Source of the DNA: a virus
Taxonomy: Duplodnaviria > Caudoviricetes
DNA: 64,000 nucleotides
IMG/VR virus record: IMGVR_UViG_3300014091_000001
Location: 22,392 to 86,391 of that record
Direction: 5' to 3' (one strand)
Positions within the stretch are counted from its first letter, which is position 1. The number at the start of each line of letters is the position of its first letter. The notes below the pieces were generated by a model. It was not told the DNA's origin. It ran no database searches and worked only from the letters and a program-made list of their open reading frames with translations. Positions 5,455 through 50,563 of this stretch are shown piece by piece. A program made the translations under genes and the position numbers.

Positions 5455-5865
5455 TTGGAGAATTACATGTCATACGAGGTGTTTTACCGGTACCCGGGCG
5501 GCGGAAACAGCCATTATCTGAAAACAGCGTCGCGTCGTATTGCGCATTCGCATTTGCTGGACATTCTTGATGAGGATGAGGTTAGAAGCCTTGCCTCGCA
5601 TGTCGTAGTGCATTACGGTGGAAGGCCTATTCTTGACGCGCCAGCCTCATTGGATAGCGACAGTATTTTGCAGTCTGTAGACTATCCCCGCATTGGTCCT
5701 CCGCGACGCATTCAGAATCCGGTCACGCTTGCAGTCTATATTCCGAAAAAAGCTGCAGATTTCATTCGTGCCCGGGGGAACGGTTCACCTTCCGAAGGCC
5801 TGAAACGCATTCTTATGGAAGTAGGTGGCGATGAGATAGCGCGATGCTACCGGAGCGGGGAATAA
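5455..5865 (+). CDS. Hypothetical protein, possible C-terminal ribbon-helix-helix DNA-binding motif
   Basis: Open 136 aa ORF; C-terminal VTLAVYIPKKAADFIRARG..SEGLKRIL has an RHH-like pattern; operon with next gene. Confidence 0.55.
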   Translation: MENYMSYEVFYRYPGGGNSHYLKTASRRIAHSHLLDILDEDEVRSLASHVVVHYGGRPILDAPASLDSDSILQSVDYPRIGPPRRIQNPVTLAVYIPKKAADFIRARGNGSPSEGLKRILMEVGGDEIARCYRSGE

Positions 5866-5870
5866 GGCAT

Positions 5871-6170
5871 ATGTCCAGAACAGAGTATGAACGGCATAGT
5901 GTAGAGCGTAAATTGCGACTGCAATACATTGAGGCGATGTATGTGGTTACAGGCTCGATAAAACGTGAGGATATCTGTTACATGTTTTCCGTGGCGGAAG
6001 CTTGCGCATCGAGAGATATGCGACGTTACCACCAGCTGAACAAAGATACTTATCTCAATCACCGGAACAAAACATGGACCGTATGTGATGATTTCAAACC
6101 GGTTGCAGGGTTGTTGCACATGCCTCACCTTGAATTCATAAAAACTCTAAAATATCTTTTAAATCAATAA
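5871..6170 (+). CDS. Stand-alone CapW/BrxR-type winged-HTH protein (no WYL domain)
   Basis: RLQYIEAMYVVTGSIKREDICYMFSVAEACASRDMRRYHQL resembles the N-terminal wHTH of WYL regulators; ATG at 5871 just after previous stop. Confidence 0.6.
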   Translation: MSRTEYERHSVERKLRLQYIEAMYVVTGSIKREDICYMFSVAEACASRDMRRYHQLNKDTYLNHRNKTWTVCDDFKPVAGLLHMPHLEFIKTLKYLLNQ

Positions 6171-44726: not shown

Positions 44727-44904
44727 GGCGTCTCCCTATCGGCCTATGATAGAGATTCTAAGGAAAATTTATATTTTATCCAGTTTTTGGCGCACATTTT
44801 CACCGTAAGCGCCGTAGCAAGGTGGCTTAGTGAGCTGACATAGTTTTGGAAAGGCTGGGTGCATGCCAGTTCCTATTAAGGAGACTGGCATGCACTCATT
44901 ATGC

Positions 44905-45423
44905 TTAGTTGATTTGGCCGTTCGCGATGGCGGCCGCTTGACGGATAGCTTCTACATAGCTCCACGAAATGATGCCTAAACGTGGCGTAGTAGGATTCTC
45001 TTTGCTGCCGGGTTTACGGTTCGGAATAGCAAAATATTCACTGCTATAAGGAAGCTTAAGGCGGCGTTCAAACTTGAACTTTGTATCGTGAGATAAACCC
45101 GTAAAAACATAATCGGGATCAGTCTTGCGGATAACGATTTCAGTCGGATAAACGTTTTCGGGCTCGGTTCGCTGGCTCGTCCCTGGAATAGCTATAACGT
45201 AGGGTTTGCCATCCTCGACCGTAACACCGACCACAAGTGTCGGGCGAGGTTTTGGGCGGGCTGGTCGTTCGCCTTCTGCTGGAGCTTCCTCGTTAGGGAA
45301 GTAACTCCATACGATACTCCCAAGAGTTGGGGTATCAAAGAATGTATGGGTAACAGCTTTTTGTTGATTGTTCGTTAGACTGCTGGTACTACCGGTACTA
45401 CTTACTTTGACGTTATTAATCAT
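44905..45423 (-). CDS. PemK/MazF-fold toxin-like protein
   Basis: GSIVWSYFP...KPRPTLVVG...VIAIPGTSQ; follows an RHH-like gene. Confidence 0.7.
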   Translation of the reverse strand: MINNVKVSSTGSTSSLTNNQQKAVTHTFFDTPTLGSIVWSYFPNEEAPAEGERPARPKPRPTLVVGVTVEDGKPYVIAIPGTSQRTEPENVYPTEIVIRKTDPDYVFTGLSHDTKFKFERRLKLPYSSEYFAIPNRKPGSKENPTTPRLGIISWSYVEAIRQAAAIANGQIN

Positions 45424-45974: not shown

Positions 45975-46050
45975 TGGTGGCCCCTGCCGGGTTTGAACCG
46001 GCGACCTCGCCCTTATGAGGGGCTTACTCTAACCGCTGAGTTAAGGGGCC
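45975..46050 (-). tRNA. tRNA with CAT anticodon, probably Ile2 (lysidine; ileX/P1 trnI-like)
   Basis: 76 nt cloverleaf GGCCCCT...CTCATAA...GGTTCAAAC...AGGGGCCACCA; acceptor stem as in E. coli ileX; encoded CCA. Confidence 0.9.
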
Positions 46051-46205: not shown

Positions 46206-46661
46206 TTAGCTGTTCTTTTCTATCTGCCGTATCAGTCGCTCATCCAGCTCACGGCGGTAGCCCAGCATGTAATCGAGCTGGCTGTTCAGGCTACCTTGCT
46301 CCAGAAAAGGCAGAGCGAGGAAGGCATCCGTTCCGATAAACGCCACCAGCTTTTGAATACGATCATTTAACTGAACCCGTTCACCCTTAATGCGTTGCGC
46401 GAACGGAGGAAGGTTTACATTGCCTACCAGCGTATGTGCGCTTTCAAACACTTCCTTTGGCAACCAACTTACATGACCAACGAATTCCGGCGTGTTGGCC
46501 GTACCGCTCTGGTTTTCGACTAAATAGCCTTCATCGTCGCCGTTCTCATTAGAAGGCAACTGCCAGCCCCGGAAAGAGTTATACGCGGCGCGAGTCATGG
46601 GCTTAGCAAAAGAGTAAACGGTGCCGACATAGAGCGGCATATCCTGGTACTTTTGTTTCAT
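46206..46661 (-). CDS. Two-domain phage protein (DUF2829-associated N-terminal domain plus crAss001_48-like helical domain)
   Basis: YVGT...AKPMTRAAYNSFRGWQLPSNENGDDEGYLVE...SWLPKEVFE then QRIKGERVQLNDRIQKL..F...QL.YM..Y...L..R. Confidence 0.6.
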   Translation of the reverse strand: MKQKYQDMPLYVGTVYSFAKPMTRAAYNSFRGWQLPSNENGDDEGYLVENQSGTANTPEFVGHVSWLPKEVFESAHTLVGNVNLPPFAQRIKGERVQLNDRIQKLVAFIGTDAFLALPFLEQGSLNSQLDYMLGYRRELDERLIRQIEKNS

Positions 46662-46689
46662 TACGTTGTCTCGGAGGGAAAGGATCAAG

Positions 46690-48810
46690 CTGGTGTAAAG
46701 TCGTCGCGCTGCCGATAACGTTTGACGCCGTTAAAGAAAACGGGATTAAACATAACAAGAGGCAGTAAGGTTATGAGCCGCTGCATTGTTTTTGATCTCA
46801 CCCATCCTATGGCTAAGCAGACTCGTGCTACCTGGCTAGGTGGGCTCAGGTAGCATCTGTTTTGCATAACAGCACAACGGGGTGAATCATCCCCCCGGGG
46901 TTTCACTTCCCCGATAAGGTTCCCCGCGCTTAACTCCACTCGGGCCGCTACGCGCTGCGGCTTGTGTGGCTACCCGCCTCAACCAGTCGCGATTCTGGAC
47001 AAAGGCAAGAATGATTCACTCCGTTGTGCGCCGGGCTTCCACCGACTCCCATCTGTTTTTTAAGCCACTCAGATATCGTCTGGGCTTGCTTACGGTGGCG
47101 GGACGCCTTCCTACATCTACACGGTTCGGATTCCCCGCATATCACGTCACGGTCAACGGCGCTTTTCCGTGGTCACTGCGCTTGCTTGTGGGCCAGGCGC
47201 TTATCTTCTGGTTGCCGTCTGTGCGGCTGCAATTCACCACAATCAAAAAGAGCGAACCACCTACACCATGTTTTGCCCAGCCCGATTGGGGTTCGGTGTT
47301 TTGTGCTGGTCGCAGGTTACAGTTTTTCACGCCCGCGCTCTTTGATTGTGGTGCCGGTGACGATTCCGGCCTGGCTCCTTCCTCAACGGGTTTTTATCCA
47401 TTACGGATTACCGTTTATTGGTCGCTCCATCGGTTTCTGTTATGGCTCCGGGTGCCTCCCGGTGTCCTCTGGCTGGTTATCCACCTTGGACGGGAACATT
47501 TCACAAAGCTCGGCCTAATGATTACCAACCTACCCTACTGCATAACCATTTTCCCGCATGCGCTTAGCTGCATTCGCCACAACATGTAAAGGCGCTGGGA
47601 GTGAATCTTATGCCCATCGCAACGCCCTTAGATGTTGGTATTCCGGTCCACCAGCCGACTGATAGCTGTAAGATCGTATTGGTTGAGTTAGTGTGTTCGA
47701 AGCACTAACCGGTGAAACCGGAATTGTGTGGTCGCTAAGCGCAGAGCGATTCCAGAAGAGGTGGAAGGAGCGCATAACGAACACACAATTTAAGTCTCAT
47801 TTGTGGCCCGTTAACGGGGGCCAGGCGGGTGCTTATTTAAGCCGCACGGGGCATTCTATGAGCGGGATAGACCATCAACCGCTTTCTCTGCCGTGACAGG
47901 AGGGGCTACTTGCCGTTCACCTTCCTCAGAACATACCCGTTACGCTTGTGACACCGTAACAGGAACGGCCCGTTCCGAACTAAGACGATGCGCCCGACCA
48001 GAACATTATCTTCTCTCCTGTAAGGGTTAGAAGAATCGGGCGCATCGAATCCTTAATGCAATTGTGGGTGGTTTCTGTCCTTGCGAAGCGTCGCCCCGTT
48101 AACACCATATCGCCACAGCCTGTGTTTCGGCTCTGCCACAACGTTAAGGACACGGCTTGACAACCTTGCGCCGCTTGGCCCGTTACGACGGCTCTCCGAC
48201 CTAAAAACCTCGCCGGTAGCTGGTGCAACACAGGTGCTGGCCACATTCCTGATCCGTGCCCTTAACGTTATGTCAGTGACAGTGACATAACGTGTCCGTC
48301 TTCCCGGACGTCCAAACCATTTGTACAGTGGTTTACTGCATCGCTATAAGAAATCATTCAATTGCCCCATTTCCCATTCTCGGGTGTGCTCGCCTGCGGA
48401 GTAGTACGCTGGCAGGGCTTTAAAGGTTTAGCCCGCTACAACCGTGGGTTAAATACGCCTCATGTGACACAGGCGGTGCTGCCTACTTACATGCTTTCAA
48501 AAACCAGTCACAGGCCGGGTGCCTCCCGGTGGTATCACTTAACGTTTCTGGTGCGCTGATACCGGTGCTGATAGACCATAGTGCTTTATGTCCAGAAATT
48601 ACCGCCCGCATAGGGTCATTCCTGATCCTGGTTTTTGCTGGTCGTACTAACAGGCTGTGCGAAAAGTGACTATCAAGATAGTTACGTCAGCACGACCAGC
48701 AAAAGCCAAAAAAATACGGGCTAACAACAAGCTAACCCGTAGTAAAGGAAGTTATTGCAATGGCTTTTCGTTGTCGGAATTGACTTTACTTAACCCCCAA
48801 TCAATATGCA
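46690..48810 (-). ncRNA. ORF-poor array of long stem-loops, candidate polycistronic sRNA region/leader
   Basis: At least nine inverted repeats of 9-20 bp and a duplicated ACCGGGAGGCACCCGG hairpin; no credible minus-strand CDS. Confidence 0.5.
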
Positions 48811-48840
48811 AGTAATTCTAAGGACTTTATTTATTATTTG

Positions 48841-50139
48841 TTATCTTACTGCGTTTTTACGCAATTTACTCCCGGCTATAACATTACTCATATAGGCCTC
48901 AATATCGCCGTTCACCTTGGCCCATTTGATACACCAGCTATTGATCGCAGGCGTGATTTCAGCTGCCATCTTTTCACCCACTCCGCTAATTTTTATAATG
49001 TTTTCGGGCAAAACTGAGGCTATATCAAGAATGGTTTCACAGCCCGCTTTTTTCAGGACGGAAAGCGTCTTAGACGATACGGGGAGCTCATCTATCGGAG
49101 CATCTTTTGCATCGAGAATTCGCTGGTGGATTTTAGGAAAATCCATTGCCAAGCGGGCCATAATTCGTTGATGTAAATCCTCATCGACCGCATGGTTCCA
49201 GGCGCTTTCGAAAATGCCGTAGCGCTCATAGATGGGATTGCCCCAAACACCAGGCACAACGTCCATCGCAAACAGCATTGCGGTGCGGATCTGATAGTGA
49301 AAGTTGGCAAGCTCTATTATGTGACCTTTATATTTCTGGTTTCGAGCGAGTAAGCCAAAGTGGAAACTGTAGATATACACCGCTACCTCCGTCCCTTGCT
49401 CGGTGGTAAAGGTGTAATGTGTGAGATCTTCCCGGCCATCATGAAAGTCAACGCGCTTTTTAAGATTCTCGTAAAGCGCTGTAATCATGTCCTTTTCCTG
49501 GGTTGCTTTCGTTGTTAGGGAGCGCGACGACGTAATTTCACGATCTGCAATGTTCAGCTTGCTCTGCAGGCTCTGGATGCGTTTGTTCAAATCCTTGCGT
49601 TCGGCGCGAAGACTGGAAACATCCTTTTCGAGACGCTTGCGCTCATCATGCATGCGCTCAGGGTTGATTCGTTTGTAATTATCAAAAGAAACGCGTAAGG
49701 AGTGAAGTGCCAGCCCGCCTGTAGTCACCTGCTCGGCCAGTTCTTTAAGGTCTCGCTCCCAGCCAATTTGTTTGCTTTCCAGCTCAAGCGTCTGCATCTT
49801 CATTGCGTTCTGTGCGGCTTCAACGCGGTCCTCTGCCTCCTGGCGAATACGGCTAATTTCAAACTGGAGGGGAGCAAGCTCACTATACTTGCGCTGCAGT
49901 TCTTCAAGCGTGTCACACAGTTGATTGTATGAGTCAGCTTCTTCGTTGAGACGCAAACCAAAGGCATTCTGCAACTGCTCAATGGTGGCAAGGCACGTTT
50001 CAAACGCTCGCCGATCAAGATCGTCTCCGCCGATACGGCGCTGCGTAAGTTTGAGTTGTGAGTAGACGCTCTGGAAAGCCATTTCAAGCATTTCGTCGGT
50101 GATACGTGAGTCTTGTTGCTCAAGGGTAACTGCGCTCAT
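48841..50139 (-). CDS. pmgS: PmgS-like coiled-coil protein with C-terminal alpha-CTD/HhH-like domain
   Basis: QRRIGGDDL..RAF, NEEADSYNQL match P1 PmgS as I recall; C-terminal PIDELPVSSKTLSVLKKAG..I...SGVGEK. Confidence 0.7.
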   Translation of the reverse strand: MSAVTLEQQDSRITDEMLEMAFQSVYSQLKLTQRRIGGDDLDRRAFETCLATIEQLQNAFGLRLNEEADSYNQLCDTLEELQRKYSELAPLQFEISRIRQEAEDRVEAAQNAMKMQTLELESKQIGWERDLKELAEQVTTGGLALHSLRVSFDNYKRINPERMHDERKRLEKDVSSLRAERKDLNKRIQSLQSKLNIADREITSSRSLTTKATQEKDMITALYENLKKRVDFHDGREDLTHYTFTTEQGTEVAVYIYSFHFGLLARNQKYKGHIIELANFHYQIRTAMLFAMDVVPGVWGNPIYERYGIFESAWNHAVDEDLHQRIMARLAMDFPKIHQRILDAKDAPIDELPVSSKTLSVLKKAGCETILDIASVLPENIIKISGVGEKMAAEITPAINSWCIKWAKVNGDIEAYMSNVIAGSKLRKNAVR

Positions 50140-50231
50140 TAATAGACCTTTTGTGATTGTGCGTTAGAATTACTATCATATTTAGCGGAATATTAATGTG
50201 TAATTCTCTATTGGTCTATTGTTTTGCGCAT

Positions 50232-50254
50232 AAAAAAGGGGCTTTCGCCCCTTT
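50232..50254 (-). terminator. Intrinsic terminator
   Basis: AAAGGGGC-TTTC-GCCCCTTT with U tract on the minus strand. Confidence 0.7.
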
Positions 50255-50269
50255 AACTTTTTTAGCTTC

Positions 50270-50563
50270 TCACTGGTTAAGCCAGACCACCAGCGCCAAC
50301 ACCAGAAAAGGAAAAATGCAACAAGCGCCCCAGGTTAAGCGGGTTAACAGGCGCGACGGTGCAACGCCGGTCGAGTATTCTTCTTCCACCATGTGCCCTA
50401 AGTAGCTCACGGCCATAACCACAGTGTTTTCACTGAGATCAAGGGCCATGTATGCACTTGCGATATCCCGCGCCGTAACCCGGGCCTTTTCGGTAGTGAT
50501 AATGACGCTGCGGCAGCGCGCACCTTCATCCATAAATGAAATATTATAATAGTGGTTAGGCAC
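50270..50563 (-). CDS. Small phage protein (tentatively P1 PdcA-like) with C-terminal TM
   Basis: HYYNISF...RVT..DI..A....L..N.VV...SYLGHM pattern; coupled operon. Confidence 0.55.
   Translation of the reverse strand: MPNHYYNISFMDEGARCRSVIITTEKARVTARDIASAYMALDLSENTVVMAVSYLGHMVEEEYSTGVAPSRLLTRLTWGACCIFPFLVLALVVWLNQ

Follow-up and report, generated by a model that had tools for sequence, protein, structure and literature searches.

A probable array of structured RNA cassettes in a gene-poor region of a P1-like phage-plasmid

Introduction

Phage small RNAs are known singly (DicF, STnc100, Pas and AgvB), and phage tRNA clusters are known too. DicF is freed from the polycistronic early transcript of the dicB operon in the Qin prophage by RNase III and RNase E, and the hairpin between nutL and N of phage lambda is an RNase III site. 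The tRNA cluster of T4 encodes stable structured RNAs (species 1 and 2) of ~120-140 nt, which are co-transcribed and co-processed with the tRNAs. Members of the STnc100 family have been detected as discrete small RNAs (bioRxiv 10.64898/2026.05.13.724894; PMC12370729).

We investigated a ~2.1-kb region without a credible gene (46690-48840) in a P1-like phage-plasmid. All positions refer to the window, which is the whole 64-kb stretch of DNA analysed. This region is very probably an array of structured RNA cassettes. In comparison with DicF, it comprises many modules, most of which exceed a base-pairing small RNA in size and complexity. Two modules have the closing stem and the 3' hairpin CACCGGGAGGCACCCGG of the STnc100/PasD family (RF02076; Zhu, Shabalina and Storz, bioRxiv 10.64898/2026.05.13.724894), and family members and array modules alike are found on phages, close to tRNAs and TerB/tciA-type genes, but this likeness concerns only two of ~12 modules. 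Unlike in the N leader of lambdoid phages, no canonical boxA-boxB pair was recognised in the array. T4 species 1 and 2 can be likened to it by description; T4 is a virulent phage with a different promoter logic.

Results

Inverted repeats and a common stem motif

The original prediction regarded the region as non-coding. In agreement with this, Pfam and PHROGs searches with the ten longest ORFs inside 46690-48840 gave no matches, and decayed genes are thus unlikely. Discrete stem-enclosed modules had also been proposed, and the repeat density bears this out. The region contains nine local inverted repeats of at least 12 nt, including six of at least 16 nt, as opposed to 1.0 ± 1.2 (maximum 5) in equal-size stretches elsewhere in the window (n = 112) and 0.3 ± 0.6 (maximum 3) in dinucleotide shuffles (n = 200). 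They include the following.

46872-46890/47011-47029, inverted repeat, 19 nt, 95%
47235-47254/47334-47353, inverted repeat, 20 nt, 90%
47713-47742/47770-47799, inverted repeat I1, from the repeat search
47986-47997/48036-48047, inverted repeat, 12/12
48133-48155/48254-48276, inverted repeat, 23 nt
48265-48278/48280-48293, inverted repeat, from the repeat search
48629-48651/48686-48708, inverted repeat I2, 23 nt, 87%

Most of the inverted repeats listed originally were recovered. The pair at 47581-47594/47623-47636 fell below the thresholds used, and the pair at 48133-48155/48254-48276 was absent from that list. A hairpin said to occur twice corresponds to a 17-nt direct repeat, CCGGGTGCCTCCCGGTG, with copies at 47448 and 48515.

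The stem motif CACAAY/RTTGTG occurs in 17 copies in the array, compared with 3.9 in shuffles (0 of 500) and 2.9 ± 1.6 elsewhere in the window. Most modules have closing stems of 19-23 bp based on this common motif, and double-stranded closing stems of this length are found in modules A, D and H and at 47708-47802 and 48626-48711. Judged from sequence, such ~20-bp stems flanking the units have the structure looked for in a polycistronic RNA processed by RNase III.

A mosaic of modules on the minus strand

Modules of 60-160 nt, all on the minus strand, make up the region as a mosaic. They are given below in 5' to 3' order along that strand, together with the elements at either end; fold z-scores, where given, were computed on the exact modules.

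48809-48823, minus strand, motif CCTTAGAAT(N3)TTG with a -10-like TAGAAT, candidate C1-type operator/promoter at the array head
48715-48741, minus strand, terminator-like hairpin followed by U7 (11 pairs and TTTTTTT), kept in relatives
48626-48711, minus strand, long hairpin with a 23-bp stem and a variable loop (z-score -6.9)
48495-48640, minus strand, STnc100-like module 1, closing stem AAAAACCAG/CUGGUUUUU and 3' hairpin CCGGGAGGCACCCGG (z-score -2.9)
48290-48494, minus strand, conserved non-coding segment, probably one or two modules
48133-48276, minus strand, candidate H RNA, ~140 nt, 19-22-bp closing stem and multi-helix core (z-score -4.2)
47980-48053, minus strand, hairpin with a Shine-Dalgarno AGGAGA and an 8-codon mini-ORF, MFWSGASS (z-score -5.2)
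47803-47945, minus strand, candidate G1 RNA, ~135 nt, predicted pseudoknot and terminal hairpin at 47806-47823
47708-47802, minus strand, long bulged hairpin AUUGUGUG.../...CACACAAU, kept in Leclercia, ET210 and L045 (z-score -6.6)
47440-47583, minus strand, module F (STnc100-like module 2), closing stem GUUGUGG/CCAUAAC and 3' hairpin CCGGGAGGCACCCGG
47346-47444, minus strand, module E, common to P1 and D6
47232-47354, minus strand, module D, 123-nt hairpin with invariant arms and a hypervariable interior (z-score -4.9)
47186-47247, minus strand, module C, small three-way element whose 5' arm is the 3' arm of D
47023-47086, minus strand, module B, 64-nt two-hairpin element
46869-47031, minus strand, candidate A RNA, ~160 nt, 19-21-bp closing stem CACAACGGAGUGAAUCAU/AUGAUUCACCCCGUUGUG
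46206-46688, minus strand, 160-aa ORF with a crAss001_48 domain (phrog_872), follows the array
45975-46050, minus strand, tRNA with a CAT anticodon, homologous to P1 trnI

By folding energy, G1, A, C, E and F are no more stable than shuffles, and the evidence for them is comparative. A sliding-window scan of MFE z-scores flagged few hairpins, and energy alone missed G1 and A. No independent homologues were found for 46690-46868, and only ~3 each for 47590-47700 and 48290-48494.

Other phage-plasmids, P1, D6 and lambdoid prophages contain the modules too, arranged in other orders. Each is present in one copy per genome, always co-oriented with the flanking genes. Lambdoid module sites lie downstream of cI/LexA-type repressor genes and upstream of exonuclease, RdgC or N genes. 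In P1-like elements the modules adjoin tRNAs; in lambdoid contigs they mostly do not. For finding related loci, DNA motif scans outperformed anchoring on pmgS, which detected three viral loci and none in genome contigs. This distribution establishes, at the level of sequence, that the putative cassettes are drawn from a pool common to temperate phages of Enterobacterales.

Three candidate RNAs outside Rfam

Modules H, G1 and A had no match in Rfam 15, either in the window or in 14 related loci. Covariation of the stems across homologues had been anticipated and was found in H, G1 and A. In an alignment of 20 distinct H homologues, 97.4% of the cells are paired, and double changes occur in 20 of the 33 pairs, compared with 10.2 ± 1.7 in shuffles (0 of 500) and at most 9 double-change pairs in slid controls. 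G-U pairs are many and A-C pairs few in H, indicating that the minus strand is the sense strand. Two loops of H each display GCRAGGUNGU.

G1 contains ~59 invariant positions among 24 diverse homologues. Its compensatory pairs are TCACGG/CCGTGA and (A/C)GCGG/CCGC(T/G), as well as those of the terminal hairpin. The predicted pseudoknot is supported by position-specific compensatory combinations (GACG/CGTC, GCTC/GAGC, GCCC/GGGC, GCAC/GTGC, GCC/GGC and GTC/GAC) and by one column pair with five pair types in 22 of 24 sequences. The longest-helix test of this pseudoknot did not discriminate cognate from non-cognate combinations (3.9 vs 3.1 bp). By DNA motif scan, the G1 motif was found at 47 IMG/VR loci and in six Enterobacterales genomes.

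For A, seven homologues with 85-89% identity display compensatory changes in the closing stem (CGG/CCG to CAG/CTG, and GGAGTG/CACTCC to GGCGTG/CACGCC) and in an inner hairpin (GCCGC/GCGGC to GCCGT/ACGGC to GCCAG/CTGGC). In relatives, a tRNA-like element directly follows the A module. Every internal gap in the H, G1 and A alignments has a length that is not a multiple of three, in keeping with non-coding sequence. The comparisons identify H, G1 and A as conserved RNAs with predicted folds and compensatory changes.

These observations bear on whether the region might be decayed coding DNA or a set of DNA-level repeats, such as MITE-like elements or recombination sites, that lack any function as RNA. 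D, with its invariant arms and hypervariable interior, does resemble a pair of terminal inverted repeats, CACAAY/RTTGTG could be a recombination joint, and the module order is shuffled. However, the compensatory changes in H, G1 and A are strong and are accompanied by a G-U versus A-C asymmetry and invariant loops, while the modules are single-copy, uniformly oriented and free of protein-family remnants. We consider this explanation highly improbable.

STnc100-like and other modules

The predicted likeness to small RNAs was found in two modules, which weakly resemble the prophage small RNA STnc100 and may be its diverged relatives. Module 1 scored 21.4 bits with the Rfam STnc100 model at 48514-48621 and module F 21.1 bits at 47441-47581; both are far below the gathering score of 47, and membership of RF02076 by score was rejected for these copies. 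Both have the closing stem and a terminal hairpin, CACCGGGAGGCACCCGG, adjoining its 3' strand, and module 1 has some compensatory pairs in a four-sequence alignment. The P1 homologue of module F (L001, 6081-6200; 88-91% homology) scored 33.4 bits, and two related arrays (L083 and L091) contain an STnc100 member at 61.8 bits, above the gathering score. Otherwise, Rfam searches of the window, at gathering scores and at E ≤ 10, returned only the tRNA and chance matches.

Several of the other modules also vary in a structured manner. In the long hairpin at 48626-48711, relatives keep the stem sequence while the loop has diverged. The stem at 47980-48053 covaries in relatives; AGGAGA..ATG is invariant and the peptide varies with the stem. 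The arms of D are 100% conserved in ten diverged sequences, whereas its 30-110-nt interior diverges. C, which also occurs in P1, D6 and other phages, has an inner hairpin that changes from GCCG..CGGC to GCTG..CAGC in homologues. Module E is 83-84% identical to P1 (L001, 5637-5734) and D6, and Klebsiella phages and plasmids, as well as an E. coli prophage, have copies of B with 91-95% identity. The segment at 48290-48494 has ~70% identity to its Leclercia, ET210 and IMG/VR relatives, from which it differs by many indels, and its RNAalifold helices display a few double changes among the ~3 independent sequences.

The array ends and the P1 ban leader

An element near 48814 had been proposed to head the region, and the motif at 48809-48823 proved to be a recurring operator- or promoter-like one. 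CCTTAGAAT has nine exact copies in the window, of which seven are in intergenic DNA, with an ORF on the same strand 10-270 nt further downstream. The motif pattern has 15 matches, compared with 5.4 ± 2.4 in shuffles. A promoter scan lists ATAACA-18-TAGAAT at the array head, and the head motif is kept in the Leclercia and E. coli ET210 relatives. By eye, it agrees at ~10 of 17 positions with what we take to be the P1 C1 operator consensus. The terminator-like hairpin at 48715-48741 lies ~70 nt downstream of this candidate promoter. It is possibly an attenuator or the end of the pmgS transcript, and it would halt transcription of the array unless read through.

At the other end, the tRNA had been taken as the end of the region, but the 160-aa ORF at 46206-46688 intervenes. 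ARAGORN found the tRNA at 45975-46050 only.

The original prediction knew of no counterpart in P1. This did not hold up, as the P1 ban leader (Pban/Op72, dicF-like, tRNA-Asn, tRNA-Thr, tciABC, tRNA-Ile, ban) has the same strand logic and shares modules C, E and F and the homologous CAT tRNA with the array. Three more long-stem modules belong to the P1 leader itself and are closed by CACAAC.../...GTTGTG stems like those of the array. The sense strand of this C1-controlled leader is the counterpart of the array's minus strand, and leader and array are both headed by a repressor-operator-like motif. In the P1 annotation, this stretch carries plp and upl on the opposite strand, with module E of P1 facing the plp gene from the sense strand of the ban operon. 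The literature search found no account of RNAs from the P1 ban leader.

The two loci also differ. The array is ~3 times larger, lacks tRNA-Asn, tRNA-Thr and tciABC, and contains H, G1, A, B and D, which are absent from P1. It follows pmgS, as in D6, while the P1 counterpart follows dmt. The P1 record at the ban leader carries three annotated tRNAs and a dicF-like region, recalling DicF, but the DicF model had no match in the P1 ban leader (E ≤ 5) or in 46660-48860 (E ≤ 10).

Lambdoid leaders and a possible cis-acting role

The position in lambdoid early-operon leaders fits cis-acting roles as well as released trans-acting RNAs. The modules (or G1, D, C and B as the key ones among them) could be cis-acting leader parts for downstream genes: nut-, put- or boxA-like elements for processive antitermination or against Rho, together with RNase III-sensitive hairpins for translational control. 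In lambdoid phages, the PL leader with the modules follows immediately on the repressor gene. A hairpin between nutL and the N start codon in an N-bearing E. coli prophage has 88% identity to C, and other array modules hold the same leader site in other phages. A terminator stands at the array start, and the RNA strand of the array has more G than C, as expected for a Rho-avoiding transcript. The invariant 3' arm of D, CGCUCUUUUUGAUUGUGGUG, begins with a boxA-like CGCUCUUU, but this is locked inside a 20-bp stem; the nearest hairpin, GCCGCACAGACGGC, is 19 nt away, while the boxB hairpin of a lambda-type nut site comes within ~10 nt of boxA. Moreover, ~12 different tandem modules in shuffled orders exceed the needs of one leader. 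We know of no use of N or put in P1-type phages, which also counts against this reading.

The put RNAs of HK022, which share the early-leader position and whose terminator read-through depends on the zinc-binding domain of the RNA polymerase beta-prime subunit, offer a closer test. In the E. coli prophage that has a copy of B, a PL-like promoter precedes this copy by ~45 nt, as for putL in HK022 (PMC9378689), and the repressor gene and the early genes lie on either side. In six related lambdoid phages, the genes downstream of G1 included no recognisable N-like protein. The window G1 and the strand of putL that contacts RNA polymerase (PMC9378689) have the word UGAACGGCAA in common, and a local alignment of the two gave P = 0.016 as a single comparison. 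Neither putR nor the second G1 class nor the whole array gave a significant local alignment, and BLAST found no similarity to HK022 put. In addition, G1 is predicted to form a pseudoknot, while put (~70 nt) consists of two stem-loops. We rejected put membership because the overall similarity is not significant, and kept the common word as a weak lead. The discrete small RNAs of the STnc100 family (bioRxiv 10.64898/2026.05.13.724894; PMC12370729) further argue against purely cis-acting leader parts, and we regard such a role for the modules as unlikely.

tRNA-like elements in relatives

Related arrays also contain tRNAs, tRNA-like elements and a solitary CRISPR repeat. At the same hot spot, L007 has a tRNA-like element with its anticodon arm deleted, and L006 and L056 have tRNA-like elements with 69-nt or similar inserts replacing this arm. 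The Serratia relative L006 also has the solitary CRISPR repeat, of type I-F. These altered elements might mean that the cassettes are tRNA-derived decoys or scaffolds against anticodon nucleases, CRISPR or other RNA-sensing defences, which would make the locus a non-coding counter-defence island. The perfect T-arm GGGTTCGAATCCC enclosed by the P1 module after tRNA-Thr, the closing stems GUUGUGG/CCACAAC, which equal the acceptor stem of the tRNA-like elements in relatives, and the early-operon position are all consistent with this. On the other hand, a tRNA covariance-model search of 46660-48860 gave no match even at E = 10, no CRISPR repeat was found in the window, and the argument is one of guilt by association only. 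A decoy function therefore seems quite unlikely.

Discussion

The explanation that we favour, and hold to be probable, is a tandem cassette array in a ban-like operon, transcribed as a repressor-controlled precursor from which RNase III releases the modules. The candidate promoter, overlapped by CCTTAGAAT as a candidate C1-type repressor operator, would fire on induction or infection and yield one long untranslated precursor. RNase III would cut the long closing stems, and RNase P and RNase E the tRNA, setting free stable RNAs of 90-160 nt. For the RNase III step taken by itself, we see the chances as evenly balanced, and our confidence in the functions of individual RNAs is lower still. The STnc100-like units may be base-pairing small RNAs. 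For H, G1 and A, with their invariant loops, duplicated motifs and the G1 pseudoknot, binding to a conserved host protein or to the transcription machinery is more likely. The common stem motif might double as a recombination joint for cassette exchange.

A bolder idea, which we offer tentatively and with some doubt, is that H, G1 and A are undescribed RNA classes in an exchangeable early-operon tool-kit, each disabling or re-programming a conserved host protein (RNA polymerase, Rho, Nus factors, an RNase or a defence nuclease). The CACAAY/RTTGTG stems, perhaps descended from tRNA-like acceptor stems, would then serve both for release by RNase III and as joints for recombination.

Against the background of phage small RNAs known singly, a 2-kb array of ~12 exchangeable structured-RNA cassettes would represent a different scale of non-coding investment. 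Three well-supported predicted folds outside Rfam recur in dozens of temperate phages, always in the first-transcribed position of an early operon. Part of the long-unexplained ban leader of P1, where the present annotation has plp and upl on the other strand, may likewise encode RNAs. H, G1 and A provide concrete candidate RNAs on which pull-downs, structural studies and assays of antitermination or anti-defence activity can be carried out.

Setting and composition of the array

The virus record is a P1/D6-like phage-plasmid. The array (46690-48840, minus strand) is flanked by a pmgS homologue and a 160-aa ORF, with a tRNA beyond the latter:

48841-50139, minus strand: pmgS homologue, RNA polymerase alpha C-terminal domain
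46206-46688, minus strand: 160-aa ORF, crAss001_48 domain (phrog_872)
45975-46050: tRNA with a CAT anticodon

The original prediction placed a processed cluster of small RNAs here from a list of inverted repeats, all of which were recovered except one pair; its duplicated hairpin also appeared in our repeat search. The array contains nine local inverted repeats of ≥12 nt (six of them ≥16 nt), against 1.0 ± 1.2 in equal-sized stretches elsewhere in the window and 0.3 ± 0.6 in dinucleotide shuffles. Fold z-scores of the exact modules (lettered below) are -4.2 to -6.9 for five modules, and those of G1, A, C, E and F are close to zero. The array-internal ORFs (the longest with 207 aa, plus strand) have no match in Pfam or PHROGs, and every internal gap in the alignments of H, G1 and A is a non-multiple of three. 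The stretch just upstream of pmgS (50137-50330, minus strand) weakly matches the Rfam model of the sok antitoxin RNA (21 bits; gathering score 59).

A mosaic of RNA cassettes

In BLAST searches against phages, plasmids and E. coli genomes, the whole array stretch was never matched. The matches are sharply delimited pieces of 50-160 nt, located in differing elements.

Modules of the array (minus strand) and the elements sharing them
46869-47031: A; Enterobacter and Serratia phage-plasmids, IMG/VR contigs
47023-47086: B; Klebsiella phages and one E. coli prophage (91-95%)
47186-47247: C; P1, D6, lambdoid prophages
47232-47354: D; Leclercia plasmids, many 40-50-kb viral contigs
47346-47583: E and F; P1 and D6
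47803-47945: G1; Pantoea, Enterobacter and Leclercia plasmids, 47 IMG/VR loci
48133-48276: H; Serratia, Pantoea and Salmonella plasmids, ~20 IMG/VR loci
48290-48740 and 47590-48060: remainder; only Leclercia, E. coli ET210 and the IMG/VR relative L045

Module orientation is constant across elements, while the order varies: C-E...F in P1, F-E-D-C in the window, and G1-D-C, G1-A, H-C or B-H in other phages. The minus strand of the array carries a co-oriented set of RNA cassettes that are conserved and structured, with partial homology to the ban leader of P1 and the PL leaders of lambdoid phages.

Three modules are supported by compensatory base changes, and Rfam 15 gave no family match for any of them (H, G1 and A), either in the window or across 14 related loci. 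The H consensus, from 20 distinct homologues, has 33 pairs, with 97.4% of cells paired. Both-sided changes occur in 20 pairs, compared with 10.2 ± 1.7 in shuffles (0/500 reach 20) and at most nine in slid controls. G-U pairs are many and A-C pairs few, so the H RNA is assigned to the minus strand; GCRAGGUNGU is present in two of its loops. G1 has about 59 invariant columns across 24 diverse homologues, three helices with compensatory changes and a pseudoknot between a loop and a downstream segment, which is found in at least six different complementary combinations. Two classes of G1 are distinguished by the 5' hairpin. In A (seven homologues), compensatory changes fall in the closing stem and one inner hairpin. 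Both arms of D are 100% invariant, and its interior is hypervariable.

A further conserved hairpin with a covarying stem (47980-48053, minus strand) displays an invariant AGGAGA (Shine-Dalgarno), a 7-nt spacer and the ATG of an 8-codon ORF (MFWSGASS). The peptide varies with the compensatory stem changes, and thus the RNA structure appears to be the constrained feature. This hairpin may be a ribosome-loading site.

The closing stems of most modules start with CACAAY and end with RTTGTG (reversed in F and C). The RNA strand of the array has 17 of these hexamers, where shuffles give 3.9 (0/500) and other parts of the window 2.9 ± 1.6. The stem CACAACAGGTAAG.G.A/...CTT.CCGTTGTG encloses H in many phages, and also frames a T-arm module in P1 and a different insert in the E. 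coli prophage L008. GUUGUGGUG/CGCCACAA is, too, the acceptor stem of tRNA-like elements 3' of A in relatives. Because RNase III needs 19-23 bp of duplex, the closing stems look like its release sites; a second possible role is as joints at which cassettes are exchanged.

Head of the array and its proposed control

CCTTAGAAT has nine exact copies in the window (5418, 19004, 25248, 37334, 38394, 38728, 44755, 48815 and 62993). Seven of the nine are intergenic, just upstream of same-strand ORFs, and A/T-rich sequence precedes each. It is likely an operator or promoter motif of the phage's C1-type repressor regulon. The copy at 48815 overlaps a -10-like TAGAAT, is kept in relatives and agrees by eye at ~10/17 positions with what we take to be the P1 C1 operator consensus. 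The copy at 44755 adjoins a region that folds very stably on either strand (44750-45000; 150-nt windows give z of about -5 to -6).

About 70 nt past the CCTTAGAAT/TAGAAT element at the array head is a terminator-like hairpin ending in U7; either passage through it is controlled or transcription actually begins further downstream. Just 3' of this terminator (48693-48708 / 48761-48776, minus strand), UGGCUUUUGCUGGUCG has two possible partners, the upstream CGACAACGAAAAGCCA and the 3' arm of the hairpin that comes next; this alternative pairing is kept in part in Leclercia. We propose that the array would be under repressor control and transcribed as a single precursor, from which RNase III would free cassettes that act in trans.

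Relation to the P1 ban operon and STnc100

The minus strand of the window corresponds to the sense strand of the P1 ban operon, which in the P1 record has promoters overlapped by a bivalent C1 operator, as well as a 'dicF-like region', tRNA-Asn, tRNA-Thr, tciABC, tRNA-Ile and ban. In P1 (L001), the annotated genes plp and upl have homologues of E and F on their opposite strand, and there are three long-stem modules of its own on the sense strand (5504-5590, 5727-5826 and ~6005-6085), one of which encloses a perfect T-arm. Together, these indicate a small version of the array in P1. Both plp and upl (L001:5473-6042), which face conserved, structured modules in the ban leader, could be artefacts of annotation. 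The D6 record (L002:4681-5386) has tRNA-Ser, tRNA-Thr and tRNA-Asn annotated on the incorrect strand; according to ARAGORN and Rfam they belong on that of tciA.

Module F and the one at 48495-48640 match STnc100 below threshold, each at 21 bits; for the P1 copy the score is 33 bits. The related arrays L083 and L091 contain a 61.8-bit member beside a tRNA. The prophage small RNA STnc100, a relative of PasD, is located in lambdoid prophages close to tRNAs and TerB-type genes (bioRxiv 10.64898/2026.05.13.724894), and experiments have detected it (PMC12370729).

Modules in other phages, prophages and phage-plasmids

Viral contigs of 40-50 kb and E. coli prophages carry the modules immediately 3' of a cI/LexA-type repressor gene, on the same strand and ahead of exonuclease, RdgC or N genes, in other words in the early-left (PL) leader. 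One prophage has C as the hairpin that separates a P22-type nutL from the start codon of N. The main alternative to release and action in trans is that some modules (G1, D, C and B) work in cis on transcription elongation or downstream translation. A boxA-like word in D is suggestive of this, but it is buried in a stem, and a search for put-like similarity yielded nothing significant.

The same hot spot in related phage-plasmids also has tRNAs. Three tRNA-like elements directly adjoining A- or H-type modules (L007:3159-3219, Pantoea; L006:3142-3266, Serratia; L056:9076-9202, an IMG/VR contig) have intact acceptor, D and T arms. Their anticodon arm is reduced to 3 nt in L007 and replaced by a ~69-nt insert in L006 and L056. 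Near RNA modules, ARAGORN also reports one tRNA whose anticodon is TTA (stop), in Pantoea plasmid pPSP-26e (L018:3215-3298), and another with a four-base anticodon, in an IMG/VR contig (L034:8214-8312). An intergenic gap of this non-coding hot spot in Serratia sp. JSRIV002 plasmid pJSRIV002_3 (L006:2194-2221) carries one CRISPR repeat of type I-F, which is perfect (41.6 bits with Rfam CRISPR-DR4) and has no further copy in the vicinity. This solitary repeat unit may be an RNA anti-CRISPR.

Small RNAs carried by phages in early operons beside tRNAs are a known kind of feature; the scale of the array, the modular exchange and the three uncatalogued complex folds are not. What was originally noticed is real and larger than could be seen from one sequence: the cassettes are families across many temperate phages.
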